Positions 1 to 14,920 are shown, counted from the stretch's first letter. The stretch is 64,000 nt of DNA from a virus (IMGVR_UViG_3300033068_001610:1-64000); one strand, 5' to 3'. A program made the numbers and translations. Notes: generated from the letters alone by a model not told the origin.

Positions 1-218
1 TTTACAAAAAGATTAGAATTATCATCATCATCATTATATCCTGTATAACCATAATTTAACCAACTTCCTGGAGACCATTCATAATGTGAATATCTTCTTC
101 TTGGAGTATAGTCCATTTCATAGTCATCATAATGATGTTTAGTTTTAGCTTTTCTCTTTTTGGGTGGAGAAGGAGTATCTACAGATATCCATTCTCCTTT
201 TATATATTCCCAGGCCAT
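1..218 (-). CDS. hypothetical protein (5' part only; continues beyond window start)
   Basis: ATG at 218 lies 2 nt after the TAA of the upstream AAA gene (TAATTATG). Minus-strand frame stays open to nt 1 (MAWEYIKGEWISVDTPSPPKKRKAK...). Confidence 0.4.
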   Translation of the reverse strand, partial: MAWEYIKGEWISVDTPSPPKKRKAKTKHHYDDYEMDYTPRRRYSHYEWSPGSWLNYGYTGYNDDDDNSNLFV

Positions 219-220: not shown

Positions 221-1546
221 TTATAGTTCTTCATCTTCCATTACAAAAGACACAACAGCTTCTTTTTTAGACAAGCTTTTGTAAATTTCTTTTGCTTTTT
301 TCACTAAATTAGTGTGAACAGCAACAAAATCTTCATTAACTGTCAACATTTGAATTTCTGTTAACTTACTATCAAATTTTTCCATTTGATGTTTAAAATC
401 TTTAACTTCAGCAGTAGAACTCATTTTACATTCTCTCACTTTAGTAATAATTTCTTCTAATTCAACAGAAAGTTGTCTAAATTTGATAGTGGCTTCATAT
501 TTCTTCAATGTAGAAGAAATTAAAGCAGGTTTTTTAGAAAATTCTGCAATAAACATCAATGCTTCAGGGCCACATTTTTCATAAACGTTATTTGCAACAA
601 TTGCAATACGAGGTGAAATTGTGATGCTGTTTTTGTGATATTCTTGTAACAAGAATGGAATGATTGGATCAATTGTTCCTTCACCAAATTTAGCTTCTAA
701 CAATGTGTTATAAGCAATTTCGTTGTAATTATCCCAAATTACATTTAATTCAAGAGGAAATCTTTCCATCAAAGCTCTTAATGAAGAGTTTTTAGCAAAT
801 TCATCACGAGTTTTGTTTGTACAACAAACAATGAATTTAGTTTTAATTGGAAATACTTGACTTCCATTTCTAAATACACCACTTGAGAGAATATCTTTTA
901 GTTGTTCAAGAATAAAATCAGGAGCATCCATCATTTCTTCAAAAATTACATATTCATGATTCATAAATGAATTTTCAACAAGATATTCAATTTTACCTTT
1001 TCCTCCTGGAGCAAATTGAGAAATATCAACACCTCCAAATAATCTGTCAGTATTCATACCAGTACCCATTGTTACAACAAATGGTTCAATGTCTCGTTCT
1101 TCAAAGAAAGCCATTGTTAATTCTGATTTACCATGTCCACCAGGACCATACAAAATTACATTGTTTTTAACTTTCATTCCAATTTCTAAAATACTTATGG
1201 CTTTGTCCATAAATACAAATTCTTCTTTTAAAGAACTTTCAAATTCTGCTACTTGTGGTTTATTAACACTCATTTTTTCTTGTTTTAAGGGAATTTTTAA
1301 ATTTTTTGTTATTTCTGTTATGCCATTATAATCTAATTCAATTTCAATATAATCTGTATTACTAAAAGCCCAGCCAGCAAAATGAAAATCTTTTCCTTGT
1401 TTAGCTGCTTTTTCTGCATCTTTAGGAATATCTGCTCCAAGGTATTCTTGCATATTTTCATGCCAATGAATAGGCACAAACTCATCCATATGATATCCTT
1501 GTTTTTCAAATTCTTCAAATGTTTTGAATCTATATTGTTGAGTCAT
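221..1546 (-). CDS. MoxR-like AAA+ ATPase (AAA_5 type) with N-terminal domain and C-terminal coiled coil
   Basis: Walker A VILYGPGGHGKSE. Walker B/MoxR-like box YVIFEEMMDAPDFILEQLKDIL followed by FIVCCTNKT, resembling the MoxR LLADEINRA..ALLEAM..ATQNP pattern. 441 aa. Confidence 0.7.
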   Translation of the reverse strand: MTQQYRFKTFEEFEKQGYHMDEFVPIHWHENMQEYLGADIPKDAEKAAKQGKDFHFAGWAFSNTDYIEIELDYNGITEITKNLKIPLKQEKMSVNKPQVAEFESSLKEEFVFMDKAISILEIGMKVKNNVILYGPGGHGKSELTMAFFEERDIEPFVVTMGTGMNTDRLFGGVDISQFAPGGKGKIEYLVENSFMNHEYVIFEEMMDAPDFILEQLKDILSSGVFRNGSQVFPIKTKFIVCCTNKTRDEFAKNSSLRALMERFPLELNVIWDNYNEIAYNTLLEAKFGEGTIDPIIPFLLQEYHKNSITISPRIAIVANNVYEKCGPEALMFIAEFSKKPALISSTLKKYEATIKFRQLSVELEEIITKVRECKMSSTAEVKDFKHQMEKFDSKLTEIQMLTVNEDFVAVHTNLVKKAKEIYKSLSKKEAVVSFVMEDEEL

Positions 1547-1592
1547 ATATAAAATATATTAAAAGCCCACCATTACAGTGGGCCTTTGATTA

Positions 1593-3023
1593 CTATTCTT
1601 CGTCATAATAAGTACGAATTCCTTTAAGAGTAGCATTAACAGCATCTTCTTGATAACTTTCATCATAAAGAATACCTTTTAAGGCAAGAGCTAATGCCAT
1701 TTCTTTAGTGACAGATGTATCTTTTGTTTTAGATAATTCAACTTGTCTTAAATAAGATTTGATACAAGTGATAAAACTTGATGCTCTGATAATGGTTTCA
1801 TTACGCAAAATCATATTTGTTTTCACATTTTCAATTATTTCAGCCATAAATGCTGGAGCAATTGATGATTCAGCAATTAATTTGTGTACTGGCTCAAAAT
1901 CTCCTTCAAGTGTTACATCTTGACAAAAGCTTGAAATATATTTTTCAGCTGTTATAGCATCCAAATATGTCATTGAAATGATTGTACCAATTCTTTTACC
2001 TCTTAAAAAGGTAGGCTCAATAAGCTCAAGATGATTAGTAGTAAACAATGAAATTACATTCATGTTTTTAGTATCACCACCATCTAATGTATTCAAAATA
2101 TCTTGAAGAGCAGAATCTCTTTCACCTTTGGTAACTTGGTCAATGTCTTCAACAAATACTAAAATACCATTACCATTTTTATCTAAAGTTTTGGCCATTC
2201 TCAATGTGTCAGCCAATAATTCAGGAGATTTCAAATAGATGGCAGAATAATTGTTTTCAATAGCTTGTTTAGCTAATTTGAATGCCAACAATGTTTTCCC
2301 TGTACCATAAGGTCCTTCTAAAATAGCACCAAATTTAATTGGAATTTTGTTATCTCTACAATGTTGAGGATGAAGAATACGAGCAGTCAATGGACTTAAT
2401 GCTTCTTCTGTTTCTGCAGAAAGAATCATTAATTCTTCATCAATGGAAGATAAATCAAGGATCTTTGGTTGTCCATAGTCATGATTTTGATTAATTTCAA
2501 AAGCTTGACATTTGTAAATAGAATCAGTATGTAACAATTCTATTGTACGATCAACCATTTTATCAATTAAATTTTGAAATTTGAATTGACATTTACCTTT
2601 GATTGATAAATTTTTACTATTTTCATCATAATAGATTTGAATAATAGCTCCTTCTCCCATTCCAGGAAGAGCAATATCACCATAAGGAACTTTTTTTCTT
2701 ACACCACTTGCAAGAGTGATATCAATAGTATTCATACCATCTTTACCTCCTGAAGGTTTTTGAGAATCAGAAACAGTTGAAGCTCCAATAGTTTCTTCAA
2801 TTGAACGATTTAATTGATAAATTCCATCATTACGAAAACAAGGAATAGAATATCTGAAATTGGTCATTCTTTCTGAGTTTTTAATCTCATTTTCAATATA
2901 TACCAATATTTCAGCGTAATCTTTATCGCTACTACCTAATGCAACTAATGTTGTTTTCTTTTCAAGATCCCAAGATGTTTTTACTTCTTTGATCTTTGCT
3001 ACTTCTGTGATTGTTTTTGTCAT
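1593..3023 (-). CDS. classical AAA family ATPase (FtsH/CDC48-type AAA module, no protease domain) with ~225-aa N-terminal domain
   Basis: Walker A GPYGTGKT, Walker B ILVFVEDID, second region of homology TTNHLELIEPTFLRGKR. AAA lid follows; 476 aa. Confidence 0.8.
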   Translation of the reverse strand: MTKTITEVAKIKEVKTSWDLEKKTTLVALGSSDKDYAEILVYIENEIKNSERMTNFRYSIPCFRNDGIYQLNRSIEETIGASTVSDSQKPSGGKDGMNTIDITLASGVRKKVPYGDIALPGMGEGAIIQIYYDENSKNLSIKGKCQFKFQNLIDKMVDRTIELLHTDSIYKCQAFEINQNHDYGQPKILDLSSIDEELMILSAETEEALSPLTARILHPQHCRDNKIPIKFGAILEGPYGTGKTLLAFKLAKQAIENNYSAIYLKSPELLADTLRMAKTLDKNGNGILVFVEDIDQVTKGERDSALQDILNTLDGGDTKNMNVISLFTTNHLELIEPTFLRGKRIGTIISMTYLDAITAEKYISSFCQDVTLEGDFEPVHKLIAESSIAPAFMAEIIENVKTNMILRNETIIRASSFITCIKSYLRQVELSKTKDTSVTKEMALALALKGILYDESYQEDAVNATLKGIRTYYDEE

Positions 3024-3028
3024 TTTAT

Positions 3029-3292
3029 TTATTTATTAAGGGATTTTATTTCTTTTTGTGCTTTAATTAAAAGTTTTTTGAATTCAGTTTCAGTTAATGT
3101 TAGACAACCAAACTCTACCAATCCATGAGACTTGAAAAATGAAAGAGTATCTGTTAATTCAACTTTATCTCTGTCACTTTCAAATGCCATTTTTATGTGT
3201 TTTAATAAAACTCGATGTTTTTTGTAAATAACTTCTTTAGTTATTAAATCAAGTTCAATTGGTAATCCATTTTTACAATAATCTAATATCAT
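3029..3292 (-). CDS. hypothetical protein
   Basis: 87-aa ORF tightly packed between the AAA and SPFH genes in an AT-rich genome. Confidence 0.45.
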   Translation of the reverse strand: MILDYCKNGLPIELDLITKEVIYKKHRVLLKHIKMAFESDRDKVELTDTLSFFKSHGLVEFGCLTLTETEFKKLLIKAQKEIKSLNK

Positions 3293-3343
3293 AACTGAAA
3301 GTATTAAAAAGCTCTGCTATTTCTAACAGAGCTTGTTATTGTT

Positions 3344-4564
3344 TTATTTGTTTTTTAAATCAAGACCAAGATCTTTGGCAGCTTTCGCACTCATAAGTTC
3401 CATAAAATTGAAACCTGCATTTCCTGCAGATCCTCCTCCAGATACATATGTAGGAACAAGTGAACCTTCATAGTTAGCAAAAGCTTCAGCCCAAAATCTT
3501 TGTACTTTTTCATATGTAGCCAACTTTTGAGTTAAAGCTCCATCTGCTTGCATTACAAGACGTTTTTTAGCTGCAATACCTTCACCTTCCAAAATATCTT
3601 TTTGTTTGTTTAAATTGGCTGTTTGTACTGCTAAATTAGCTACATCTTTTGCAGCTTCAGCTTGAGTAACAAGTTTAGATTTAATAACTTCTTGTTCCCA
3701 TTTAGCTTTGGCAGCATTTGCTTCTCCTTGTTTAGCTGTAGTGATAGCATCTTGTTCAGCTCTTTTAGCATTAGCAATGGCAGTTTGAACAGACATTATA
3801 GCTTTTTGTTGACTTTGAATTTGAGCTTCTACTGTTTTATCATATCGAATATCATTAATAGAAATACTATATAAACGAATACCAAATTCTTCAATAGAAG
3901 ATTTTTCTTGTCTATAAGGATTACCTTTAATCATTACAATTTCTACTTTACTAACAGCTTTTTCAGTATTTGTTAATGCATCCACTTCACGTACAGATAT
4001 AGTTTTAGTTTTATATACTCCTTTAGAAGATTGATCTTCAATATAATATATAAGGTCATTTCTTTTTTCTGCATATGATTCTTTAGATGACATCAAAGGT
4101 CCTGTCATAAATATTGATTTAGATATATTAGTATTTACTAATTGTTCTTCAATATTTTCTTGATTTCTATAAGTACTATGAACTTTCTTCATTTTATTTT
4201 CATCTAAAGGAAGATCTATACGAATACTTCCTGATATCCAAGCATGACCACCATCATTAAATTTGACTGGCAAGCTTTTATCATATTCAGTGCCTATATA
4301 TTCTTTTTCTTTAGGTGCAAGAAAATTAATTTGACTAGAACGTTTGTAATGTGTTACTCTTCCAAGTCCTTGCCAAGTTGGCCCTGGTTCATACACCACT
4401 TTAAGATCTCCACTTAAAGATTGAATTACAAGAATTTCTCCTGCATCATTGTCTTCAATTGTATTAAATGATAAAACGACTGCAGCTACTAAAACTAAAA
4501 GTATTAAAGCATACTTTCTAATACCTTTAATCACTGAACTTGATTGATTTTCTTCTGTGTACAT
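3344..4564 (-). CDS. SPFH/band-7 (HflK/flotillin-like) membrane protein
   Basis: N-terminal TM helix YALILLVLVAAVVLSF, central SPFH-like core, C-terminal Ala/Gln/Lys-rich coiled coil (AKRAEQDAITTAKQGEANAAKAKWEQE...) typical of HflK/C and flotillins. 406 aa. Confidence 0.65.
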   Translation of the reverse strand: MYTEENQSSSVIKGIRKYALILLVLVAAVVLSFNTIEDNDAGEILVIQSLSGDLKVVYEPGPTWQGLGRVTHYKRSSQINFLAPKEKEYIGTEYDKSLPVKFNDGGHAWISGSIRIDLPLDENKMKKVHSTYRNQENIEEQLVNTNISKSIFMTGPLMSSKESYAEKRNDLIYYIEDQSSKGVYKTKTISVREVDALTNTEKAVSKVEIVMIKGNPYRQEKSSIEEFGIRLYSISINDIRYDKTVEAQIQSQQKAIMSVQTAIANAKRAEQDAITTAKQGEANAAKAKWEQEVIKSKLVTQAEAAKDVANLAVQTANLNKQKDILEGEGIAAKKRLVMQADGALTQKLATYEKVQRFWAEAFANYEGSLVPTYVSGGGSAGNAGFNFMELMSAKAAKDLGLDLKNK

Positions 4565-4791
4565 TATTTCTCGATGTTTTTGGTAATGTTATTTATTTTT
4601 TGTTGTGTTTTCTTAGTGGCACCTCTGATTGCTTGTTTTTTTTCTTTAAATTCTTTTGATTGTTTTTCCAAATCATCTAAAGATGATTCTGGTTTTCTTA
4701 AACGAAATATATCAGGAATAAGAATATAAAGTAAAACAAATAAAAAGAGCAGGACTAAGCCTGCTCTAATTAAAAACATTGCAGCTGTCAT
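4564..4791 (-). CDS. small membrane protein (N-terminal TM + charged coiled coil)
   Basis: 75 aa. TM AAMFLIRAGLVLLFLFVLLYILIP; ATG overlaps the start of the SPFH gene. Confidence 0.45.
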   Translation of the reverse strand: MTAAMFLIRAGLVLLFLFVLLYILIPDIFRLRKPESSLDDLEKQSKEFKEKKQAIRGATKKTQQKINNITKNIEK

Positions 4792-4795
4792 CTTG

Positions 4796-5086
4796 TTAGA
4801 ATCTTTCTGCTAAAATTCCTTCAGCAAAAGCAAGACCTTCTTCTAATGCTTCCACTTCTCTATAAGCAGAAAGTTCAGCATTTACACTGTAAGGAATGGC
4901 AGCTTTTGTTTTTGATAATGCTTGTCTAGCATTTGCTAGATCAAATTTAGTAGTGGCTATTGTCACTTCTAAGTTGGATTTTGCTTTTTGTACTTCTAAT
5001 GCTAACTCCTCTGCTTGTATATCCTTCTCTGATTTGGATATTAGGTCGCTGTATTTTACAGGAGTCTCTTTGGCTTTTGTGCTCAT
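4796..5086 (-). CDS. hypothetical coiled-coil protein
   Basis: 96-aa ORF with clean heptad character. Overlaps the 3' end of the upstream 385-aa ORF by 140 nt. Confidence 0.4.
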   Translation of the reverse strand: MSTKAKETPVKYSDLISKSEKDIQAEELALEVQKAKSNLEVTIATTKFDLANARQALSKTKAAIPYSVNAELSAYREVEALEEGLAFAEGILAERF

Positions 5087-6104
5087 CTTTTTTTAATTTT
5101 AAGGGATTATTTATTTGTTTTGGAAATTCATATTCTTGTGATAAATCAATTTCATCACAAGGGTTTGTAGGTCGCAGGGTTTTCCAATCTGGATGACCTA
5201 AAGGCAAAAAAGGTATTATTGTTTCAATACTAACTTCTTCAACAGAAGTTACTTGTTCAAATCTAATTGAATCGTGTTTACTCCAAAATTTACATTGATT
5301 AACATATCCATATTTATCTAAATAACCACGAATTCCTTCAATTTTACTGAATTTAACATAATGGGAAAGACTATCAAAATTTAATTTATACCATTTATCT
5401 ACAACCATATCTTTATAGCTCATTTGCTCAATGGGTGATTCACATATAAAAGGCATTAAATCTTCTAATTTGTATTCTTTTTTTCCAGAACCATTTGATA
5501 CAAACCAAAAAGAACTATCAGACCAAGCTATACCAATATCTTTTTTTGCAGGATGATCAATATTTTGTCTTGTATTTTTTAAATATTCTTGTAAATTGTT
5601 GTCTAAACTTCTACAAAATCCATTTGTTGGAAATCCTGATAATTTAAGTTGTGCTAAATATTCTTCCTTTGTAGCAATATCATATAAATGATCATTAGGA
5701 TCTGTACCAATTTCAGCAAAATTAAATTTTTCATCTAAAATGACAATTTTATTGACATAATTTGATTTTGGTATTCTATCAGAAACTAAATATATTTGAG
5801 ATGATGAAATATTAAAAAATGTAGATTGTCCTGTAATAATAGAATAAGGATTTACATTTTTAACATATTTTGGTTTTATTTGTTCTTTTCCAACTATTTC
5901 AGCAAAACTGCGAGTTTTATGATCGTATAAACGAATATCAGTACCAACTGTATTACCACAATAAATACTTTCACTATATCCATAATGAATATCATTTGAT
6001 GTTCTACTAACAGTAAGTGGTTTACCATTAGATGTACATCTTACAATAGTACCATCTGGATACATAGCTTTAGCTATTTCTAATCTTTTTTCTTTTTCAT
6101 CCAT
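4947..6104 (-). CDS. hypothetical protein
   Basis: 385-aa ORF. The C-terminal 45 aa are R/S-rich and overlap the next gene; possible frameshift or mis-end. Confidence 0.45.
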   Translation of the reverse strand: MDEKEKRLEIAKAMYPDGTIVRCTSNGKPLTVSRTSNDIHYGYSESIYCGNTVGTDIRLYDHKTRSFAEIVGKEQIKPKYVKNVNPYSIITGQSTFFNISSSQIYLVSDRIPKSNYVNKIVILDEKFNFAEIGTDPNDHLYDIATKEEYLAQLKLSGFPTNGFCRSLDNNLQEYLKNTRQNIDHPAKKDIGIAWSDSSFWFVSNGSGKKEYKLEDLMPFICESPIEQMSYKDMVVDKWYKLNFDSLSHYVKFSKIEGIRGYLDKYGYVNQCKFWSKHDSIRFEQVTSVEEVSIETIIPFLPLGHPDWKTLRPTNPCDEIDLSQEYEFPKQINNPLKLKKDEHKSQRDSCKIQRPNIQIREGYTSRGVSIRSTKSKIQLRSDNSHY

Positions 6105-6154
6105 AATTAAAAGATTTAAAAGGGCTTTATATTACTACAAAGCCCTATGATAAA

Positions 6155-6490
6155 TTACTCTTCTGCTGCTGGAAGAAAATCATCAGTGTTAATCAGATCA
6201 TCTTCTGACATTCCCAATTCAGACATCATTTGCATCATTTGTTCTGAGGCTGACATTCTTCCAATGATTGCATCTTTAACTGCTATAGCAGCTAAAATAA
6301 CAATTTCTTCATCAGAAAAATGTTTTAATACACCTTCTAAAATTACAGATGTAGAAAGAGGTTGTCCATCTTCAAATTCAGCTACAAGAGCTTCAGTTGA
6401 TTTTTGTAATGCGTCATTAATGTCTCCATTGAAACCAATAGCATCACTCAATTCTTCTTGAGTGTGGTCGAATTTTAAATTTGTGTTCAT
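6155..6490 (-). CDS. small acidic protein, paralog A of FDH/LSYNELL-like family
   Basis: N-terminus MNTNLKFDHTQEELSDAIGF aligns with the ORFs at 6683 and 8376; acidic C-terminus. Confidence 0.5.
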   Translation of the reverse strand: MNTNLKFDHTQEELSDAIGFNGDINDALQKSTEALVAEFEDGQPLSTSVILEGVLKHFSDEEIVILAAIAVKDAIIGRMSASEQMMQMMSELGMSEDDLINTDDFLPAAEE

Positions 6491-6508
6491 ATATTTATTA
6501 TTAAGGAT

Positions 6509-6679
6509 TTAAAAATTTTCTATGTAAAGAGAGCGAGCTCTTAAATTTGTTTGAGATATAATTCTAAAATTAGATTTATATAACACTTCAACAACATATC
6601 TTCTACATTGTTGTAATTTTGTAGGATTAGTTGATGCAACTAATATTCCTTTACTGATGTTAATGCGTGGTCTAGGCAT
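6509..6679 (-). CDS. hypothetical small protein (56 aa)
   Basis: ATG at 6679 sits 3 nt after the stop of the 6683 gene. Unlisted ORF MPRPRINISKGILVASTNPTKLQQCRRYVVEVLYKSNFRIISQTNLRARSLYIENF fills the only gap in a tightly packed operon. Confidence 0.3.
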   Translation of the reverse strand: MPRPRINISKGILVASTNPTKLQQCRRYVVEVLYKSNFRIISQTNLRARSLYIENF

Positions 6680-6682
6680 AAT

Positions 6683-6970
6683 TTATTTTTTATATTTATT
6701 AATTATACTTCTTAAGCCAGACAAAGGACTATTGTCTTCTTTTTGTCTGTCCATTATAGCTTCAATATAACCTAAACTAACGAATAATAATTCGTTATAA
6801 CTCAGTTCATTGGCAATTCTTTCAACTATTTTACTTTTGTGACGTTTGCCATTCATGGCATAATCAGTAGTAATACTAGCTAATTTACCATGCAATTCTT
6901 CTATCTGTGTATCTGGCATACCCATACATTCAGATAATCTTTCTCTTGTGTGATCAAAAACTAAACTCAT
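6683..6970 (-). CDS. small protein, paralog B of FDH/LSYNELL family
   Basis: MSLVFDHTRERLSECMGMP ... ANELSYNELLFVSLGYIEAI. Shares motifs with the 6155 and 8376 ORFs. Confidence 0.5.
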   Translation of the reverse strand: MSLVFDHTRERLSECMGMPDTQIEELHGKLASITTDYAMNGKRHKSKIVERIANELSYNELLFVSLGYIEAIMDRQKEDNSPLSGLRSIINKYKK

Positions 6971-6972
6971 AA

Positions 6973-7215
6973 TTAAGGAGTTGTTAAAATTATTCGTCCT
7001 ATTGTCAGGATGATTCCTGCGATAATACTACCAACTAAAAATCCCCTTCTAAAAGAGGATTTTAGTAATTGTTCACTTGCTTCAATTATTTCATTTTGAA
7101 GAGTGACAATTTTTTCTTGTGAATTAACTAATGATTTTAGATTAACTATTCTTTTTTCGTGAAGTGTGTTAATATCTTCTATGATTTTAACTACATCTAA
7201 GGGAGTTTTTTCCAT
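6973..7215 (-). CDS. tail-anchored coiled-coil membrane protein
   Basis: 80 aa; coiled coil then C-terminal TM FLVGSIIAGIILTIGRIIL. Confidence 0.45.
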   Translation of the reverse strand: MEKTPLDVVKIIEDINTLHEKRIVNLKSLVNSQEKIVTLQNEIIEASEQLLKSSFRRGFLVGSIIAGIILTIGRIILTTP

Positions 7216-7368
7216 TTAATAAATATAAAAATCGTCTTCAGTTAATTCAATGTTGTCTTCTTCACAAATATTTTGTATGGCTACATTAATTTGTGATAGT
7301 GTTGCATCTTCAATATCTATTTCAAATATTGATTTTACCCATTTTGATAATCTATTATAATCACTCAT
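7216..7368 (-). CDS. hypothetical small acidic protein (50 aa)
   Basis: Unlisted ORF MSDYNRLSKWVKSIFEIDIEDATLSQINVAIQNICEEDNIELTEDDFYIY. Its ATG overlaps the upstream stop (AATGAGTGA) and its TAA abuts the next start. Confidence 0.3.
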   Translation of the reverse strand: MSDYNRLSKWVKSIFEIDIEDATLSQINVAIQNICEEDNIELTEDDFYIY

Positions 7369-7645
7369 TGTCATCATCTGTTTTACCAATCAATGACATT
7401 GGGTCATTAATAGCTGCTTCCAATTCATCAAGAAAGGATATGCCATGTTTATCAATAAGTTCATGAATTAATTTTTCTGATAAATCAGAATTATCTCCTC
7501 CTTCCACTTCAAGAAGTAATAATAATTTCATTGCACCTTCTTTTGGAATAGTTGTAATAAATTGAGGTTTCTTTTTTAAAATAGTTATTATCATTTGAAG
7601 ATAAACTTCCATTCTAATATGACGTTCGTCGTTATTTGAGCTCAT
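7361..7645 (-). CDS. ABC-type ATPase C-terminal fragment (Walker B / D-loop region)
   Basis: KLLLLLEVEGGDNSDLSEKLIHELI matches the ABC Walker B + D-loop pattern (LLLLDEPTxGLD...ELI). ATG lies 5 nt after the stop of the 7651 ORF. Confidence 0.45.
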   Translation of the reverse strand: MSSNNDERHIRMEVYLQMIITILKKKPQFITTIPKEGAMKLLLLLEVEGGDNSDLSEKLIHELIDKHGISFLDELEAAINDPMSLIGKTDDDNE

Positions 7646-7650
7646 TTTTG

Positions 7651-8388
7651 TTAAGTATTTGTATTAGTTATTAAACACATATTGAGAATTGCTTGATGTC
7701 CTGCTCCTAATGATGTAGCTGATTTAATTGAACCATCTTTCATTGTAATATTAAAATCACAATCAAGTAAATCAACATTAATTTCAGCCATGTTTTTAAA
7801 AACATCATCATTATCAGAAATAGTATTCAAGCTTGATAATATTTTTTCATCAAATTTATATGGCATATTTGCTACTAATCCTTCAATAGTTTGAATATCA
7901 TATAATTTGAACATCTCAGATAATTTCATTATCTTTTCTTCATTTGAACCACCAAATGATTTTCTAATTTGTAGATACATTTTGATACCAGTAAATAGTC
8001 TAAATTGAGAAGACATATATATCACTTTAGTTGGAATTAAATTATCTATAGCATTAAATTGAATAAATGAACATTTACCTGTTTCATCTAATTCTATTTC
8101 AACACTGGCTCCTGAAGAATAAGTAAATTTTATTTCTCCAACAATAAAATTATCAAAACAATGTGAGAAAATTTCATCACATACTAGTTTTGAATCATGT
8201 TCATTGTCAAATATTCTAAAATTTATTACACTTGTTACAGCATAAACCATTACATTAATAAATGATTTACCTACACCATTCTTACCTGTTAACATAGTAA
8301 GAGCATTAACATTCATCTCCACTGCTTTAAAAGCAATTGGAGATGAAAGATTTAATGAAATTGTTTTAACACTACCTAATCCTTGCAT
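7651..8388 (-). CDS. ABC/AAA_21-type ATPase N-terminal part (Walker A + signature-like motif), ends before Walker B
   Basis: RecF/SMC-like N-terminus ISLNLSSPIAFKAVEMNVNALTMLTGKNGVGKS. Ends SLGAGHQAILNMCLITNTNT*, an LSGGQ-like signature, with no Walker B. Confidence 0.55.
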   Translation of the reverse strand: MQGLGSVKTISLNLSSPIAFKAVEMNVNALTMLTGKNGVGKSFINVMVYAVTSVINFRIFDNEHDSKLVCDEIFSHCFDNFIVGEIKFTYSSGASVEIELDETGKCSFIQFNAIDNLIPTKVIYMSSQFRLFTGIKMYLQIRKSFGGSNEEKIMKLSEMFKLYDIQTIEGLVANMPYKFDEKILSSLNTISDNDDVFKNMAEINVDLLDCDFNITMKDGSIKSATSLGAGHQAILNMCLITNTNT

Positions 8389-8843
8389 GAGTTTAAATCA
8401 TCAAGGTTAGGCATATTTTTTTGCTTTAACATTTCTTGAAGTTTTTTTCTTTCTTCAGAATCAAAAGCAACAACTTTCATTGAAAGTCCTTTACCAATTG
8501 GAAATGCTCCTTGTTCAGATAATTCTGCTAAAGCATCTTCATCTAAATCTTTGATTTGTTTGATTTGAGATTCTAAATCTTCTAAATCACCACTTAATTT
8601 AGTACTTAAAGATTTAAGTTCTCCCTGAATTTTATCAACTACTGATATTGTTGCCAATAACAACAATTCATTATATGATAATTTATCAGCTAACATTTCA
8701 GCCAATTGTGTTTGTGCTAATTGTTTATGAACAACTTCATTAGCAATTTTGTTTAATCGATCTGCATGTTCTTGCATATCTTTTTCTGTGAAACCCATTC
8801 CTTTAATTAAGGAGCTTGAGTTATGATCAAAATTTGTTTTCAT
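8376..8843 (-). CDS. small protein, paralog C of FDH/LSYNELL family (longer, coiled-coil C-terminus)
   Basis: MKTNFDHNSSSLIKGMGF ... ADKLSYNELLLLATISVVDKI. Stop overlaps the start of the ATPase gene. Confidence 0.5.
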   Translation of the reverse strand: MKTNFDHNSSSLIKGMGFTEKDMQEHADRLNKIANEVVHKQLAQTQLAEMLADKLSYNELLLLATISVVDKIQGELKSLSTKLSGDLEDLESQIKQIKDLDEDALAELSEQGAFPIGKGLSMKVVAFDSEERKKLQEMLKQKNMPNLDDLNSCKD

Positions 8844-8854
8844 TATTTATTGTT

Positions 8855-9103
8855 TTAAGGGAGTTTATTTAATAAGTATGTTCTGGTTTCAAATTGATAC
8901 CAATACACACCATTTGGCATTTTAATAACACATCTATTTGCTATCCCAAGGATGCAACTAAATTGAACTTTCATAACTGTCCTAACCCAAGAATTATCCA
9001 ACACTGCAACAGGTTCAAATTCTTCAGTATCTATCCAAACTGGATAAGATAAAGAAGAGTGCATTATATCACCCTTCTTTTCATTGATTACATCAACAGC
9101 CAT
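8855..9103 (-). CDS. hypothetical protein
   Basis: 82-aa ORF in packed operon. Confidence 0.4.
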   Translation of the reverse strand: MAVDVINEKKGDIMHSSLSYPVWIDTEEFEPVAVLDNSWVRTVMKVQFSCILGIANRCVIKMPNGVYWYQFETRTYLLNKLP

Positions 9104-9105
9104 AA

Positions 9106-9348
9106 TTAATATGTATCAAGTTTATATCCAAGAGCTACAAGTTCTTCAGATTTATAAAATCTATCTAATTCAATTTTTGGGTCTTCAGAAAAATCATCAA
9201 TTTCATAAGCTCGTATATCATCAAACTTTGGAACTAATTTTAATTCTAATATTTTAGCAGTTGCTTCTTCTGAATTACTAGCTTCAACAACACACACTCC
9301 TTGATTCTTCCCTTGATAGGAAAATGAAAACCAATATGTTTTTTTCAT
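9106..9348 (-). CDS. hypothetical protein
   Basis: 80-aa ORF in packed operon. Confidence 0.4.
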   Translation of the reverse strand: MKKTYWFSFSYQGKNQGVCVVEASNSEEATAKILELKLVPKFDDIRAYEIDDFSEDPKIELDRFYKSEELVALGYKLDTY

Positions 9349-9359
9349 AATGTTATGTA

Positions 9360-9641
9360 TTAATAGATTTCATAATCTTCTTCTGGTTTAACAACTAATT
9401 CAAATGCATCTTCATACACTTGAATTCTATCACCTTTATGATAAGTAGAATAATTCATATTATTCATAACCACACCTTTTTGTACACTTACATGCATAAG
9501 CTTTTTAGTATAACTAGGACTAAGATCAGGATTTATAACAACTAATTCTTCAACATCTTTTAGTTGCATATAATTACTTTGTTTTTTTCCTACTATTGGC
9601 TTAATGATGTCTCCTTTTTTAAATTTAGGGATATTTGCCAT
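9360..9641 (-). CDS. hypothetical protein
   Basis: 93-aa ORF; start overlaps upstream stop. Confidence 0.4.
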   Translation of the reverse strand: MANIPKFKKGDIIKPIVGKKQSNYMQLKDVEELVVINPDLSPSYTKKLMHVSVQKGVVMNNMNYSTYHKGDRIQVYEDAFELVVKPEEDYEIY

Positions 9642-10114
9642 TAGTCCTCATTTAAAAGTTCACTAATTTTAGCCAAATCATTAGCCAATTTCATCTCTTG
9701 AGATAAATTAGCTTCTAATGTAGCTTTTACGCTTCTCAATTTGTCAAGTTCTTTTTTATGACTGATTTCAGCAATTTTAAGAACTATAACATCACGCCAA
9801 GCTTGAGGAGAATGTCCTTCAATAATAAGTACAGGTTTTTTAATACCTTCAGGAAGATATTTATCTGCAGCATTATTATAAGATTCTTGTTTACCATCAA
9901 TAGATGCACAAGCTTGTAATAGCTTCATTACATCATTAATGTTAGCAATTGGTCCAAATCCTGGTAATCCTGTAGTAATAACAGGTACAGTTGAATCATT
10001 TTTACTTAATTCTTTAATTTTAGAATTAACTGTTTCTAATAAAGCAGGAATATCTGCTTGTGTGAACTTTGTTTGTGTGCTTACAGCTACACTTTCTGGT
10101 GCTTTTGGTTCCAT
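9641..10114 (-). CDS. hypothetical protein
   Basis: 157-aa ORF. Confidence 0.45.
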   Translation of the reverse strand: MEPKAPESVAVSTQTKFTQADIPALLETVNSKIKELSKNDSTVPVITTGLPGFGPIANINDVMKLLQACASIDGKQESYNNAADKYLPEGIKKPVLIIEGHSPQAWRDVIVLKIAEISHKKELDKLRSVKATLEANLSQEMKLANDLAKISELLNED

Positions 10115-10139
10115 TTGTTTTAAGGGATTTGATTTATAA

Positions 10140-10397
10140 TTATTCTATTGTAATATACTGTTTGTATTGTTTTCCTGTTTTTTTGGAAGTTTTAACAATA
10201 AAAAATCTTCCTTTAGATGTAACATAAACAGGATAGTTTACATCTTTGATTGTAATGACATCACCAGTCAATCTAGGTTGTGCAACTGGTGTAGTCAATG
10301 AGACTAACTGACCACTACTATTTCTAGTGTAAGTGGTTTGAGCTGATATAGATAGACTAAATAAGCCTAATGCTATAAGAATAAATGTTTTTTTCAT
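10140..10397 (-). CDS. small secreted protein (Bacteroidetes-type signal peptide)
   Basis: MKKTFILIALGLFSLSISAQ then a beta-rich 65-aa mature part. No Cys after the signal, so not a lipoprotein. Confidence 0.5.
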   Translation of the reverse strand: MKKTFILIALGLFSLSISAQTTYTRNSSGQLVSLTTPVAQPRLTGDVITIKDVNYPVYVTSKGRFFIVKTSKKTGKQYKQYITIE

Positions 10398-10804
10398 GTG
10401 TGTATAAATTCAATTGTTCTAAACAATAATTGACGAGGAAATCCATTTCCCATTGGTAATCCATTAGGAACAGCACCATTTAATATGTTTCTAGCATAAT
10501 AATGACATTGTCCAAATGATGGATAACGAGGAAAATCTTTGACAATAATATCAATATATTCTCCTTTAAAAGACAAACTTGGTAGACTGTGTGAACCACT
10601 TGCATGATTAAATGCTTTAGATAGCTCAATAGTATATTTAAATTTTTTCTGATTCGATTTGTGAAAGCACAATCCACCAAATTTCATGTCTTTTGAAACT
10701 AATGTAATCCCAGATATTGTTATATCATTAATATAACTTAATACAGGATTCATAGTTTTATCTTTATAGATACGAAGGATGAAATTAGTCCTCATCCTTC
10801 TCAT
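10394..10804 (-). CDS. hypothetical protein (true start probably internal Met MNPVLSY)
   Basis: 136-aa ORF. The N-terminal 17 aa overlap the 10785 ORF. Confidence 0.4.
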   Translation of the reverse strand: MRRMRTNFILRIYKDKTMNPVLSYINDITISGITLVSKDMKFGGLCFHKSNQKKFKYTIELSKAFNHASGSHSLPSLSFKGEYIDIIVKDFPRYPSFGQCHYYARNILNGAVPNGLPMGNGFPRQLLFRTIEFIHT

Positions 10805-10982
10805 CTATTTTAATTGCTATAAATAAACAACAATTAAATACAAGAAATTGTATAAACCAAATCATTGGTGTATATCTATCAATTTCTAAAGCTCTTCCAT
10901 ATGTAATCATAGCTTCCATAAACAAGGCAAGCAATAATAACATTGATGTTCTTCCTATTAATATGATTATATCTCTTATCAT
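10785..10982 (-). CDS. small 2-TM membrane protein with acidic C-terminus (holin-like topology)
   Basis: Two hydrophobic helices, then EKDED tail; 65 aa. Confidence 0.4.
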   Translation of the reverse strand: MIRDIIILIGRTSMLLLLALFMEAMITYGRALEIDRYTPMIWFIQFLVFNCCLFIAIKIDEKDED

Positions 10983-10986
10983 TTTG

Positions 10987-11199
10987 TTATGAACTTTGTA
11001 AATAAATTGTACATCCTTCTAATCTATTATTTTTTATAGCCCAATCAACATCTATTACAGAACAGTTATATATTTCACCATTATGTTCAATATCAAAATT
11101 GCCTAAACCTTTTACAGGTACTGAAGGTAAATAAATTACTAATTTATCTAATTCAGGAACTCCATCCATATTTGCGAGCATACATTTAATTAAACTCAT
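10987..11199 (-). CDS. hypothetical protein
   Basis: 70-aa ORF; ATG overlaps the stop of the small membrane ORF (ATGA). Confidence 0.4.
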   Translation of the reverse strand: MSLIKCMLANMDGVPELDKLVIYLPSVPVKGLGNFDIEHNGEIYNCSVIDVDWAIKNNRLEGCTIYLQSS

Positions 11200-11360
11200 T
11201 TTTTCCCAAGTTTATAGTTAATGTATATCAAGGATGCTATAAGCATATCAATAATAACAATAAATGCCCAACCTGATGATTTAGCATCAGATTGAACACC
11301 AATGTATGTAAAGCCAATTATGTATAAAATACATAATGTATAGAATATTTTATTTTTCAT
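11196..11360 (-). CDS. small 2-TM membrane protein (54 aa)
   Basis: Unlisted ORF MKNKIFYTLCILYIIGFTYIGVQSDAKSSGWAFIVIIDMLIASLIYINYKLGKK. Translationally coupled (ATGA) to the 10987 gene. Confidence 0.4.
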   Translation of the reverse strand: MKNKIFYTLCILYIIGFTYIGVQSDAKSSGWAFIVIIDMLIASLIYINYKLGKK

Positions 11361-11372
11361 AGTTTTATTTAT

Positions 11373-11609
11373 TTAATCACACCAACTTCTACTACATCCA
11401 GGACAAGATATAATATGAGAGGAAGAAGATAACTCTAATGCTTTATCTTCTCCATATCTCTCAACTAATATTTCTCCTAATGTTTGAAGTGTTCCATAAT
11501 TATTTCTATCTCTATTCCAACCATATGAATGGTTACAAGATCTACTAGCAAACATTGGTAGATTATTATCTTCACAATATTTAGACTGATTTATATAATG
11601 TATATCCAT
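11373..11609 (-). CDS. Cys-rich small protein
   Basis: 78 aa with CxxxxxC...CxxC...CPGCSRSWC. Confidence 0.4.
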   Translation of the reverse strand: MDIHYINQSKYCEDNNLPMFASRSCNHSYGWNRDRNNYGTLQTLGEILVERYGEDKALELSSSSHIISCPGCSRSWCD

Positions 11610-11613
11610 AATA

Positions 11614-11868
11614 TTATGTATTAAAATATGTTATTGGATTTTGACCTTTCAATATCATTGATTTAAACAAACTTATAGCATCTAAAAAATCATTTTCAGT
11701 ATCAGCAGATAAATAAACACCATTAGTATCATTTCCTTCAATAATCCATTCAACTGCTTCTAATTGTTTATTAATAATAAGTAAACAATCAGAACTAATT
11801 GCAATGTAATCTTTAAACCCATCATATTGTACGTTGGGTTTAATTACTGTAAGAGCAAGTGTTTCCAT
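11614..11868 (-). CDS. hypothetical protein
   Basis: 84-aa ORF. Confidence 0.4.
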   Translation of the reverse strand: METLALTVIKPNVQYDGFKDYIAISSDCLLIINKQLEAVEWIIEGNDTNGVYLSADTENDFLDAISLFKSMILKGQNPITYFNT

Positions 11869-11874
11869 AATTAT

Positions 11875-12183
11875 TTAATTATAATTATTTATTCTTTTCC
11901 ACAATCTCTCAACAAATGTTGTATTACCTTTAGCTTCCACTTGAGCTAAGTATTCAGGAAGTTTTGATGTTCCACATAAATGCCAAGATTGATGTAATAA
12001 TCTATTAGGAAGTATTAATTCCCTAACATCTCCTTTCAAATCAAGCCAATCATCATATAATACAAAAGCTTTATCCATAGGAATAGATATTTCTCCACTA
12101 CAAGACCAAGATTCTAATAGTCCAGTAAAATATTCATTCAAATCTTTAATCATATGTTCTCTAGTAATAGTAAATGTTGCCAT
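11875..12183 (-). CDS. hypothetical protein
   Basis: 102-aa ORF; first gene of the packed leftward operon after a 350-bp non-coding gap. Confidence 0.45.
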   Translation of the reverse strand: MATFTITREHMIKDLNEYFTGLLESWSCSGEISIPMDKAFVLYDDWLDLKGDVRELILPNRLLHQSWHLCGTSKLPEYLAQVEAKGNTTFVERLWKRINNYN

Positions 12184-12494
12184 AATGCTATATTATTTAT
12201 GTTGTTAATGTGTTTTTGTGTATTTGTTTTAGGAGATTTATTGCTTTGAGAGTCTCCACACTCCCTTTCCAACCTATTCACATCATCTAAAATATTAGAA
12301 GATTATCAATAAAACGTGATTTTCATTGAAGAATAGTTATAACGCTCGTCGTAGAAAGTTTTAATTTCTGAGAATAATGCAATAAAGAGAATAATGAGCC
12401 CTGATTCTCACATATCAAGGCCCATTTTCCCTTCAAAAAACAAATTCACACATTATACATTCTACTGGTTTCTATGTCACCACCCAATTTCAAA

Positions 12495-12544
12495 GCGTTT
12501 TCAACCCACCCTATATATAGGGAAAAAAGAGCTTATGCTCTTTT
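12495..12544 (-). terminator. hairpin (AAAAGAGC-AUAA-GCUCUUUU, stop codon in loop) + U-tract, followed by CCCTATATATAGGG palindrome
   Basis: Inverted repeat 12525-12544 directly at the stop of the 12533-13015 gene; perfect 14-nt palindrome 12509-12522. Confidence 0.35.
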
Positions 12545-13015
12545 CTCCCATTCAAATTTGGTAGCAACTTTAGGCGTAGCCTTAAGCTTGGTATCAGATT
12601 TGATTTTAGTTGCTGACATATTGTCTGCAACGTATTCCTCGCCAAGATAAAGAGCGAGATCAAGAATTGGCTCGTCTTTATCGTCGAAGAGGATTTCACC
12701 TCGACGATTTCGTCGTGGTGTCCACTCGCCAACAACGTTAGTTGTTAAGAGTTGGTTCATAAGTTGAGTGTACTCAGCTTGTGAACTTGCACCACGAATG
12801 GCGTCAGACATTTCTTGTGTGCACAAGAGCTTGAATTCTTCTTCAGAAGAATTAAATGCTCTTATAAGCAATCGAACTTCGTCTTTCTCGAAGTTGCTAT
12901 TGCTCCAAAGTTCGACAGAACCTTTGTCGCCTAATAAGGCGTTAAGAACACCAAGCTTGGTTGTTCTTGTAGTAACGTTTACGTTACTTTGAAATTTAAC
13001 GATAGGTAATTTCAT
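12533..13015 (-). CDS. hypothetical protein, GC-rich island gene (start at internal Met MKLPIV)
   Basis: 160 aa. Clearly higher GC (~42%) and CGT/TCG/CGA codons unlike neighbours. The upstream 52 codons of the listed ORF (MIFWKIKKNFFF...) are read-through of the AT-rich control region. Confidence 0.5.
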   Translation of the reverse strand: MKLPIVKFQSNVNVTTRTTKLGVLNALLGDKGSVELWSNSNFEKDEVRLLIRAFNSSEEEFKLLCTQEMSDAIRGASSQAEYTQLMNQLLTTNVVGEWTPRRNRRGEILFDDKDEPILDLALYLGEEYVADNMSATKIKSDTKLKATPKVATKFEWEKRA

Positions 13016-13392
13016 AATAATTAAATTTAATTTATTAAATTTGATGTGGGGGATATCCCCACTTTTTAATTTTGTGTGGGGTTTTGTATTGGAAGTGGAC
13101 TTAATCAGCAGACATATAATCCTTTTCCTAATTTTGAAAAAAAAATTTTTTTTAATTTTCCAGAAAATCAAGGGTTTAGCTTCAGCGATAAAAAAAATAT
13201 TTTTCTGGCCCAGAAAAAGTTTCTACCTTTGGTGGGTGGGTGGGTTTGTTCTTAATGTATTTACCAACTTTTCTTTCTTCCTTTATATAGAAAATACAGA
13301 TAATGTAGGAATATTTGAGTATAATATAGCAATTGAATTAAAAAAAATATTGTTAATTCATTTTATGTTTATATCTTTGTACAAACTAAATT
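13016..13392. promoter_or_regulatory. divergent control region / candidate origin
   Basis: GGGGATATCCCC palindrome (13048-13059). TGTGGGG direct repeats (13044, 13074). A9T8 palindrome (13137-13153). TTTTCTGGCCCAGAAAA palindrome (13201-13217) with an extra CCAGAAAA half-site (13160-13167). G4 motif GGTGGGTGGGTGGG (13231-13244). Confidence 0.5.
13350..13379 (+). promoter_or_regulatory. Bacteroidetes-type promoter (TTG - 19 nt - TATCTTTG) for the rightward operon
   Basis: TTG at 13350-13352 and TAnnTTTG match at 13372-13379; ATG of first gene at 13393. Confidence 0.35.
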
Positions 13393-13755
13393 ATGGAACC
13401 AGTGATAATTCAGAAATTAAAACTGTCCTCAGAGGATAAGTATAAACAGGCTGAGAAATACTATGCTGTTCTTTCAGCTATTAATAATTTACATTTGACA
13501 GAGCGAGAACTTCAGCTCATTGCTTTTACAGCTATTCATGGTAATATGTCATATGCTTATATTAGGGAAGAATTTTGTGCTAAATATAAGACTACCAATC
13601 CTACGATTAATAATATTATTTCTAAGTTGAAAAAAATGGGTGTCCTTGTTAAGGAGGCTGGAAAGATTAAGGTGAATCCTGTTATTGTTCTGGATTTTGA
13701 AAAAGAAATAAGGCTGGCAATAACATTAAACATCAAGGAAAATGAAGCCAGCTAG
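13393..13755 (+). CDS. putative DNA-binding/regulatory protein
   Basis: 120 aa. Helix-turn-helix-like LTERELQLIAF... and winged-helix-like KLKKMGVLVKEAGKIKVNP. Confidence 0.4.
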   Translation: MEPVIIQKLKLSSEDKYKQAEKYYAVLSAINNLHLTERELQLIAFTAIHGNMSYAYIREEFCAKYKTTNPTINNIISKLKKMGVLVKEAGKIKVNPVIVLDFEKEIRLAITLNIKENEAS

Positions 13756-14092
13756 TATGACATTGAAGGAATATTTACAGAAGAGACTATCAGTCTCTTT
13801 AGTTGTTCCTGAAAGAATTATTGATTCAGTGATAACACATCAGTTTGATAGTGCCAATGATGCTCTTAATACTAACAAGAGTATTGAAATCTCTGGATTT
13901 GGAAAGTTTTATTTTAATGAGAAGAGAGCTGTCAAGTTGATGGATAAATATTTGAGCCAAAAGGAAGTTTTTACAAGAATTCTTTTGGATGAAACTATAT
14001 CTCCTCAAAGAAAGAGAGGAATGGAAATGAAATTGGAACAGAATGCTGTTAATATAAAAATGTTAAAACCAAAAATAAATGGATCTGTCTAA
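13742..14092 (+). CDS. HU/IHF-like DNA-binding protein
   Basis: TLKEYLQKRL...IIDSVITHQFDSANDALNTNKSIEISGFGKFYFNEKRA aligns to the HU helix1-helix2 and beta-arm start (..V.L.GFG.F.V..R.AR). Confidence 0.5.
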   Translation: MKPASMTLKEYLQKRLSVSLVVPERIIDSVITHQFDSANDALNTNKSIEISGFGKFYFNEKRAVKLMDKYLSQKEVFTRILLDETISPQRKRGMEMKLEQNAVNIKMLKPKINGSV

Positions 14093-14369
14093 GATATATG
14101 AAGGATGGAAAAACAATTATTTTCCTCCAGAAGAATTAAAAGAAGTGATAGCTTCAGCACAGGGATTTCGTTTAGAGATTTGTAAAACATGCCCTGAACA
14201 TTCAGCGAATAAAAAGGAAGCTTCTATAAGATGGGATGATCATTGTACAAATTGTGGATGCACCCTGTCTGCCAAAACAGCTTGTTTAACTTGTGAGTGT
14301 CCATTAAAAAAATGGGTAGCAGTGTTGACAGATGAACAACAAAAAGAAATTTTAAATCCAAAGAGATGA
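14079..14369 (+). CDS. Cys-rich putative zinc-binding protein
   Basis: CKTCPEH...HCTNCGC...CLTCEC; 96 aa. Confidence 0.45.
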   Translation: MDLSKIYEGWKNNYFPPEELKEVIASAQGFRLEICKTCPEHSANKKEASIRWDDHCTNCGCTLSAKTACLTCECPLKKWVAVLTDEQQKEILNPKR

Positions 14370-14632
14370 AAAATAAATTAAACGTTAATACATTGAGAAA
14401 GATTCCTCTCAAAGTGTTTATAGATACACTGATTGATATATACAATAGTGGAGTGGATTATATTGATATTGTTGGTAAAAATAGTCCTACTAACAAGAAG
14501 GATATTATCAATATTAGGGTGAGACCAGAATATAAAACACAGGATATTGTTGAATATAATTATTATGATGGTGAGGATGAGGATGTTGAAGAGAAACCTT
14601 TCTCTGATAAAGACATTTCAGATTTAATATAA
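14366..14632 (+). CDS. hypothetical protein (acidic C-terminus)
   Basis: 88 aa; overlaps upstream stop. Confidence 0.45.
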   Translation: MKNKLNVNTLRKIPLKVFIDTLIDIYNSGVDYIDIVGKNSPTNKKDIINIRVRPEYKTQDIVEYNYYDGEDEDVEEKPFSDKDISDLI

Positions 14633-14920
14633 ATGAAGATGAATAAACCAAACTACCCTAGTAAGATTCTAAAAGTTTTAGAACAACTAAAAAGAGATTT
14701 TCCTCATTGTAATTTAGGAAGACATTTAGCAACAGCTCTTGATGAACAAGATTTGTGGAGCCTTTCAGATAAGGACATGTTTAATTATTTAGATGAATAT
14801 GCTTCAGAGTTGTCAATGGACAAGCCACATGAAGATGAGGAGTTGGATAATATTATAAAGGGTGGAATGAATTTAACCTCCCTCATCTATGATGATGAAG
14901 ATGAGGACGAACAAGAATAA
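14633..14920 (+). CDS. hypothetical acidic protein
   Basis: 95 aa, DDEDEDEQE tail. Confidence 0.45.
   Translation: MKMNKPNYPSKILKVLEQLKRDFPHCNLGRHLATALDEQDLWSLSDKDMFNYLDEYASELSMDKPHEDEELDNIIKGGMNLTSLIYDDEDEDEQE

Follow-up and report, generated by a model that had tools for sequence, protein, structure and literature searches.

Three anciently diverged paralogs of a new phage protein family and their gene-neighbourhood association with a MoxR-VWA chaperone pair in a crAss-like phage

The window analysed here is a 64,000-nucleotide (nt) stretch of viral DNA (IMGVR_UViG_3300033068_001610:1-64000), and the element under study is a block of small minus-strand genes at positions 6155-8843. Three of these genes, A, B and C, encode members of a protein family, here called the FDH family, which share an N-terminal FDH motif and a central LSYNELL motif. 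The paralogy of A, B and C and the novelty of their family can be regarded as practically certain. The context evidence that associates the family with o56, a small basic protein encoded between B and C, and with the genes for a MoxR-type AAA+ ATPase and its VWA cochaperone is strong, and, judged from gene neighbourhood, a functional linkage of FDH to o56 and MoxR-VWA is probable. More tentatively, the FDH and o56 proteins may belong to a phage MoxR-VWA chaperone as accessory components, adaptors or clients, with a triplication in the window lineage, a reading that we consider conceivable, if still short of probable. The window lineage is best read as carrying an expanded cassette, with an FDH gene on each side of o56 and a third copy, A, that would be translationally coupled to a P-loop protein.

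Paralog A (8376..8843) comprises 155 residues with a net charge of -8, paralog B (6683..6970) 95 residues with a net charge of about 0, and paralog C (6155..6490) 111 residues with a net charge of -19. All three open reading frames (ORFs) are present on the minus strand with the motifs quoted in the first-pass annotation of the window, which had proposed that they are diverged copies of one gene. Pairwise comparisons show that they are true paralogs, with BLASTP E-values of 8e-9 for A/B (28% identity over 86 residues), 1e-5 for B/C and 5e-5 for A/C. Smith-Waterman alignments gave z-scores of 11.9 (A/B), 8.0 (B/C) and 4.8 (A/C), and for each pair none of 2000 shuffles reached the observed score; control alignments of A, B and C against nine neighbouring small proteins did not exceed z=2.3. 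A hidden Markov model of the 86 shared columns retrieved only A, B and C from 790 six-frame segments of the window (next best E=1.8), and among these B scores best against the family profile. Syntenic orthologs of all three genes are found in the related loci L003 and L004, and codon mismatches in the ortholog comparison are rarest at position 2 and most frequent at position 3, with position 1 in between, which is a coding pattern. On the near-identical contig L013 an independent gene caller yields the same gene set, including the ORFs of 50 and 56 residues discussed below. Neither of the two outcomes that the first-pass annotation had named as fatal to its proposal, alignments at the level of shuffled controls and a lack of homologues or coding signal, was therefore observed.

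An exhaustive profile search assigns at least 242 clusters at 50% identity to the FDH family at E≤1e-3, and 50 at E≤1e-10. A word-seeded search found 21 relatives among 5.8 billion proteins, and a metagenome scan added only seven loci. Among the matches listed, members contain 70-198 residues and the domain lies almost always at, or a few residues from, the N-terminus. Searches of A, B and C against Pfam and PHROGs gave no match better than E=0.09, and the sole NCBIfam match, at 17.9 bits where the cut-off is 575, is spurious. None of 97 family members scanned has a Pfam or PHROG family match. In tblastn searches of the deposited phages with B, the relative P0013 and the family consensus no match was obtained, even at E≤1, and a motif-seeded scan of 185,579 species-representative prokaryotic genomes did not find the family.

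The AlphaFold2 (AF2) model of B, with a predicted local distance difference test (pLDDT) score of 82.5, shows an extended N-terminal segment bearing the FDH motif, followed by five helices. The FDH domain is accordingly modelled as an all-helical N-terminal domain of about 90 residues, to which a variable and usually very acidic tail is attached. Comparison of the domain with the PDB and BFVD, by sequence and by the fold of the B model, revealed no significant match. Near-invariant positions in the family are His7, Ser46 and Glu50, and the LSYNEL motif is located at the exact start of the modelled helix 58-76. LSYNEL is most simply explained in the model as a helix N-cap made up of a hydrophobic staple and a capping box, with Leu56 at N', Ser57 at N-cap, Glu60 at N3 and Leu61 at N4; as a helix cap the motif would be structural rather than catalytic. 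A resemblance of LSYNEL to acyl carrier proteins (ACPs) was considered and rejected, because its Ser-to-Glu spacing is unlike that of the ACP motif DSLDxVEL and the fold matches listed include no ACP. Members of the family are for the most part acidic, their median isoelectric point (pI) being 4.9. One member, P0047, contains two FDH domains in tandem within a single protein, a fusion which hints that FDH domains act in pairs.

Paralogs A, B and C share 45-58% identity with their L003 and L004 orthologs, the order of the three genes being unchanged in the window and in both relatives, whereas the flanking genes retain 63-91% identity between the relatives. Each copy has counterparts outside this lineage. 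In A the FDH domain (residues ~1-85) is followed by a conserved C-terminal module (LD-EDAL-ELSEQG...G.G.S.KVV..SEE..K..EML), which it has in common with the A-type proteins P0042 and P0109; its orthologs are those of L003 (49%) and L004 (45%), and P0042. The B-type subfamily includes P0036, P0031, P0032 and P0039, and orthologs of B at the same position are present in L003, L004, L014, L016 and L033. The C-type subfamily includes P0087, P0095 and P0099. Moreover, A is 41% identical to P0027 from another phage, compared with 28% to B. On these sequence comparisons, A, B and C are anciently diverged, each with a subfamily of its own, and the triplication appears old and fixed in the lineage. Three copies are present in the window group, two copies flanking o56 in L014/L015 and in L029/L081/L083, and a single copy in most other loci. 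Copy number, whose variation among relatives had been named earlier as a point to check, differs between lineages, which carry from one to three copies, but not within the group of the window, L003 and L004, where it is fixed at three.

The gene o56 (6509..6679, minus strand) lies directly 3' of B, with C located 3' of it, and encodes a 56-residue protein with a pI of 11 and a net charge of +7.5. It shares 77-80% identity with its L003 and L004 orthologs, against approximately 50% for its neighbours, and all of its 48 homologs contain 46-64 residues. FDH and o56 genes overlap or abut in the window lineage, in L014, L016 and L018, and in a distinct phage lineage characterized by DNA polymerase A (lineage 2); in L014, L016 and L018 the o56 homolog is situated 3' of the B-type gene or overlaps it by 11-20 nt. 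Of the 19 loci returned by a scan of IMG/VR seeded with o56 alone, 17 have an adjacent FDH gene, which lies 5' of o56, 3' of it or on either flank. In a profile-profile comparison of ten window-group families with nine families from lineage 2, a single match other than those of the FDH family itself crossed the lineages, namely that between o56 and a 55-residue protein encoded 3' of FDH in lineage 2 (hhalign E=7.6e-5). The order of FDH and o56 flips, yet the two remain neighbours, so that their adjacency survives rearrangement. Its persistence despite the changes in order and some 70% divergence of the FDH sequences is good evidence of functional linkage.

The second association is with MoxR and VWA. 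The window encodes a 441-residue MoxR-type AAA+ ATPase (221..1546, minus strand), which is 52-76% identical to the MoxR proteins located directly 3' of FDH genes in other phages. Its assignment to the MoxR clade follows from matches of the window MoxR orthologs to PF20030 (bpMoxR) and PF07728, and from a match to RavA at 1.3e-5. Downstream, the first 72 codons of a VWA cochaperone gene (1..218, minus strand), which leaves the window, match the 469-residue VWA protein of L003. The VWA proteins of L003, L014, L022 and L029 contain the sequence DYSGS, an intact DxSxS motif of the metal ion-dependent adhesion site (MIDAS). A MoxR-seeded scan gave 62 loci, of which the 55 with at least 1.5 kb of upstream sequence were used to count FDH genes. 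An FDH gene is present on the same strand within 3 kb 5' of MoxR in 35 of these 55 loci, and o56 and FDH are both present in 31; divergent FDH-like genes occur directly 5' of MoxR in four further loci (L092, L093, L094 and L107). A VWA homolog follows MoxR on its 3' side in 56 of the 62 loci. The commonest gene order in the o56 loci is o56, FDH, MoxR, VWA, with FDH ending approximately 40 nt before MoxR. By position and sequence relative to these other loci, C matches the copy next to MoxR, which in most relatives lies immediately 5' of it, and B matches the one on the 5' side of o56. Inserted genes have moved C away from MoxR in the window group.

A further property that accompanies the MoxR loci is the acidic C-terminus of the FDH proteins. 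In 30 of 31 long FDH proteins from the MoxR-seeded loci at least four of the last ten residues are Asp or Glu, compared with 4 of 98 ORFs of similar size, and the C-terminal residue itself is Asp or Glu in 29 of the 31, compared with 17 of 98 similar-size ORFs of the same loci. Typical tails end in ...GDGDDD or ...NED. In the window, A ends in ...LDDLNSCKD, B in ...NKYKK and C in ...DDFLPAAEE, and the C-terminal module of A can be aligned with the corresponding part of the long FDH proteins from MoxR loci.

These observations suggest how FDH proteins might serve the MoxR-VWA machine, as its adaptors or as its clients. In this scheme the helical FDH domain would hold a partner, which for B and C would most likely be o56. 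MIDAS sites bind an acidic ligand residue, as in integrin I-domains, Midasin and CbbO, and the free acidic C-terminus of FDH could provide the carboxylate ligand for the MIDAS site of VWA; alternatively, the acidic C-terminus might mask the basic o56 protein. MoxR, with ATP, would then load, release or remodel the FDH-held partner, and A, B and C would represent subfunctionalised adaptors with different tails. Docking of FDH onto the MIDAS site in this specific manner is a speculative proposal, to which we assign a low likelihood. A still more elaborate version, which we put forward as a long shot, is that FDH and o56 form a client/adaptor pair in which the ATPase, recruited via the MIDAS-bound FDH tail, loads or strips o56, thereby operating during infection as an ATP-driven switch on phage or host DNA or RNA, with the three adaptors, an SPFH scaffold and a second AAA+ protein extending the machine; o56 would in that case probably bind nucleic acid.

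Several observations weigh against a role of the FDH proteins in the MoxR-VWA chaperone. The C-terminus of B is basic and not acidic, no FDH gene can be detected in approximately 20 of the 55 MoxR loci, and in lineage 2 (L001, L005-L007 and L009-L011) FDH, with or without o56, is encoded near genes for a helicase and DNA polymerase A, while MoxR is absent from the surrounding 8 kb. Within the window, MoxR lies 4.6 kb away from C, and a terminator-like hairpin intervenes. The LSYNEL motif, interpreted as a helix cap, is uninformative on function. Finally, the MoxR proteins are 50-76% identical, so that most of the MoxR-linked loci may belong to one broad phage group and the association could in part be inherited synteny.

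The first-pass annotation had taken the three copies for an expanded gene family of the kind typically found at host-takeover or anti-defence loci. According to this explanation A, B and C would be independent small early proteins, multiplied in an arms race, and the neighbouring ABC-like P-loop protein, which lacks Walker B, might act as a decoy, poisoning ABC-type defence ATPases of the host, for example PtuA or GajA. It would account for the fast divergence of the FDH genes relative to the flanking genes, for the variable accessory genes nearby (the ATPase gene being present or absent, and a 1.36-kb insertion being found in the window) and for the failure to find the family in prokaryotic genomes. 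It would also fit the weak but consistent matches of the P-loop protein and its orthologs to PtuA, NsnB, AriA, GajA and HEC models, and the location of the block near the start of the non-structural arm in a phage that bears a virion RNA polymerase motif. However, copy number and order are fixed and the copies represent old subfamilies rather than recent duplicates, the FDH family stably adjoins o56 and MoxR-VWA in dozens of contigs, and no match to known defence-system models rises above noise, counter-defence families not having been searched. Old copies, their fixed number and order, and their recurrence with o56 5' of MoxR-VWA are more in keeping with the conserved parts of a system than with an arms race, and the proposed expansion is not supported; we regard this explanation as rather unlikely.

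Less probable again is that the adjacency to o56 and MoxR-VWA reflects inherited gene order without functional coupling, the FDH proteins being dispensable fillers. The close relationship of the MoxR proteins in the linked loci, many of which are consequently not independent, and the lineages that have FDH without o56 or MoxR are in line with this notion, and if the link is only inherited synteny the finding shrinks to one more hypothetical phage protein family. Yet the adjacency to o56 is kept through order flips although identity among the FDH proteins themselves has fallen to about 30%, the start codons of genes overlap the stop codons of their neighbours, the C-terminus has stayed acidic, and the codon patterns indicate purifying selection. 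Equally doubtful is a hetero-oligomer of A, B and C (elsewhere a homo-oligomer of one copy) serving DNA replication or transcription independently of MoxR-VWA: the three copies are always kept together in close relatives, the tandem fusion P0047 exists, a few kb separate the single copy of lineage 2 from the DNA polymerase A and helicase genes downstream, and an FDH gene in L020 runs into the start of a helicase-like P-loop ORF, but no replication gene is found near the copies in the window, o56 and MoxR-VWA are the strongest and most frequent neighbours, and the proteins are mostly acidic, without nucleic-acid-binding features.

Some additional features of the MoxR and FDH loci may be mentioned. 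In L014 (2137-2457) and L015 (2019-2339) a gene of its own, for 106 residues, carries the N-terminal ~70 residues of MoxR and directly precedes a shortened MoxR, and the short form of MoxR is present in many relatives in IMG/VR. Helicase-like P-loop ORFs (…GVGKT…DEC/DES) are found near FDH or about 1 kb upstream of MoxR, at positions 342-632 of L020, 1831-2940 of L092 and 2541-3626 of L101, which suggests a wider conserved neighbourhood of helicase, small genes, o56, FDH, MoxR and VWA. In L001 (8856-10100), and likewise in L005, L006 and L007, some 1.3 kb without called genes is located 3' of the genes for FDH and for proteins of 55 and 86 residues.

The genes from A to C are all co-directional on the minus strand, in the order A, the 245-residue P-loop protein, genes for proteins of 94, 50 and 80 residues, B, o56 and C. 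They are tightly packed, with intergenic gaps of 0-18 nt or overlaps, as had been noted for the small ORFs in the first-pass annotation. Both ORFs of fewer than 60 codons that it had added at 6509-6679 (o56) and 7216-7368 are real genes, as they have conserved orthologs and were called independently on L013. The latter ORF (7216..7368, minus strand) encodes a conserved acidic protein of 50 residues, with orthologs of 50 and 51 residues, and begins at the ATG chosen earlier, which overlaps the stop codon of the 94-residue gene. The 80-residue protein (6973..7215, minus strand) contains a hydrophobic, membrane-type segment at its C-terminus and weakly matches phrog_12368; a similar protein is encoded 5' of the B-type gene in L014.

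The region 7361-8388 had been annotated as a single ABC-type ATPase gene. Its ABC-like nature is borne out, but a TAA stop divides it into two ORFs, one for the 245-residue P-loop protein (7651..8388, minus strand) and one for a conserved acidic protein of 94 residues (7361..7645, minus strand). The 245-residue protein has an ABC/AAA_15-like N-terminal region with the Walker A sequence GKNGVGKS, conserved in three orthologs, followed by a conserved YMSSQFR and by LGAGHQ, which is signature-like. No Walker B (hhhhDE) or H-loop is present: the full-length orthologs (245-246 residues) stop 10-13 residues beyond LGAGHQ/TGSGYQ, the window protein itself 13 residues beyond LGAGHQ. Orthologs occur in L004 (246 residues, 56% identity), P0023 (35-37%) and L012 (start only), and the gene is absent from L003. 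The P-loop gene begins 13 nt before the end of A, overlapping its stop codon, and the stop of an A-type gene also overlaps the P-loop gene in L004 and L012; the distant homolog (P0023, in L021) has no FDH neighbour. The best profile matches are AAA_23 (0.0026), AAA_15 (0.0048), AAA_29 (0.028), PtuA (2.7e-5) and NsnB (3.5e-5), all N-terminal only and below curated cut-offs, but consistent across the orthologs, which also match AriA, GajA and HEC. PDB sequences gave no match, an IMG/VR search seeded with the protein found none, and an AF2 model, built from two sequences only, reached a pLDDT of 37.7. The protein is thus weakly indicated to be an ABC-like P-loop protein without the catalytic half, and no ATPase family is assigned to it. 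The 94-residue ORF was also considered as the Walker B half of a split ABC ATPase and rejected, as its Walker-B-like LLLLLEVE sequence is not conserved. It has orthologs in L003 and L004, and because L003 lacks the ATPase the 94-residue gene is separate from it.

Compared with the group of PtuA (Septu), GajA (Gabija) and the AAA_15, AAA_23 and AAA_29 families, the 245-residue protein shares Walker A within its usual N-terminal β-strand context and the order of a Q-loop-like and a signature-like motif, and three orthologs give weak N-terminal profile matches. Unlike members of that group, it is about half the usual size, lacks Walker B, D-loop and H-loop as well as a nuclease or other partner domain, and scores far below the family cut-offs.

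Directly past the stop codon of C a hairpin, AGGGCTTT-N10-AAAGCCCT, followed by a T-rich run (6105..6154, minus strand), looks like a terminator and lies at the upstream edge of a window-specific insertion of 1.36 kb (4792..6154, minus strand). The insertion is absent from L003 and L004, where the gene for a 75-residue protein directly follows C, and is outside the conserved cassette. It contains ORFs for 385 (4947-6104) and 96 residues (4796-5086), which overlap by 140 nt in different frames and have no Pfam family match. Further towards MoxR, on the minus strand, are genes for the 75-residue membrane protein (4564-4791) and for a 406-residue SPFH/Band_7 protein (3344-4564) whose orthologs match Pfam Band_7, both of them found between the FDH genes and MoxR in the window lineage only, and then for an 87-residue protein (3029-3292) and a 476-residue classical AAA+ ATPase (1593-3023) with FtsH/PAN-like and IetA-like matches, the last two being present in the window and in L003. 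Apart from a homolog of the classical AAA+ protein in one of them, the 62 other MoxR loci contain none of the inserted genes, the SPFH/Band_7 and 75-residue genes included. Three similar G+C-rich hairpins with T-runs occur on the minus strand, after the AAA+ gene (1547-1592), after the Band_7 gene (3293-3343) and after C (6105-6154); from their sequences they are likely terminators or attenuators that divide the arm into units.

The minus-strand arm also contains a gene-free region of 349 nt (12184-12532) with a near-consensus promoter, GTGACA-17-TATAAT, and a 13-bp hairpin. This region may be a control region for the FDH block, although the phage probably infects a member of the Bacteroidota, a group with other promoter motifs. 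A scan for sigma-70 promoters gave sites no more numerous than in shuffles, and an Rfam search of positions 1-16000 gave no match. The study of phage phi14:2 reports no promoter motif shared by the early genes (phi14:2 paper).

The window derives from a crAss-like phage. Its capsid protein matches PF23898 (Crass_capsid) at 1.7e-29 in a Pfam profile search, and a crAss-type major capsid protein is combined with a giant protein bearing a DFDxD RNA polymerase motif, as in Crassvirales-like phages. The capsid gene (21293-22858, plus strand) encodes a protein with 24.6% identity to its nearest deposited relative, from a Leptolyngbya phage, and a single tRNA-Met gene (23029-23102, plus strand) is located just 3' of it. 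The giant ORF (48409-61872, plus strand) encodes 4487 residues with one DFDID motif at residue 3494 (GSDFDIDKL) and has no Pfam match. A DFDID-type motif is the catalytic motif of the virion RNA polymerase gp66 of phi14:2 (phi14:2 paper), and in the window phage it is apparently embedded in a much larger protein. A comparison of the DNA of positions 5500-9500 with 50,697 deposited phages found no similarity, and with the low capsid identity this leaves the window phage without a close deposited relative.

MoxR-VWA pairs are widespread, their clients are known in few cases, and their role in tailed phages has only been guessed to be virion assembly. Against this background, gene order links two undescribed families of small proteins to a phage MoxR-VWA pair, namely FDH, which comprises at least 242 clusters, and o56, which comprises 48 proteins. 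Both provide concrete, testable candidates for clients or adaptors of the machine. The phages concerned form a large group known as uncultured contigs, many of which are 60-120 kb long, and include the crAss-like phage of the window. The case also illustrates that a cluster resembling an anti-defence paralog expansion can be an old and fixed set of system components.

MoxR-VWA pairs have been described as chaperone-cochaperone units with system-specific extra components, and a role in virus assembly has been proposed (PMC7159879, PMC7824862); a search of the literature on bpMoxR and on crAss-like phages with MoxR found nothing. As in RavA-ViaA, CbbQ-CbbO, NorQ-NorD, the ATV virus pair and the ternary systems of Kaur et al. 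2020 (PMC7159879), the phage genes are arranged as MoxR followed by a VWA gene with an intact MIDAS, with the difference that the pair is encoded here by a phage. The small conserved genes directly 5' of the pair resemble the 'third components' of the MoxR-vWA ternary conflict systems (PMC7159879), but FDH and o56 show no detectable similarity to VMAP, iSTAND, TERNS3 or other described partners (no Pfam match). The classical AAA+ ATPase beside the pair in the window recalls the FtsH-containing MoxR-vWA subtype of bacteria, and the whole minus-strand row at 221-4791, consisting of the 75-residue membrane protein, SPFH/Band_7, the 87-residue protein, AAA+ and MoxR, and then VWA, resembles such FtsH-containing systems. 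A final parallel is offered by the effector-associated and Death-like domains of bacterial conflict systems (PMC8195603): like these, the FDH domain is a small N-terminal domain, predicted to be all-helical, with variable C-terminal parts, and it recurs in several genes of one neighbourhood near MoxR-VWA.

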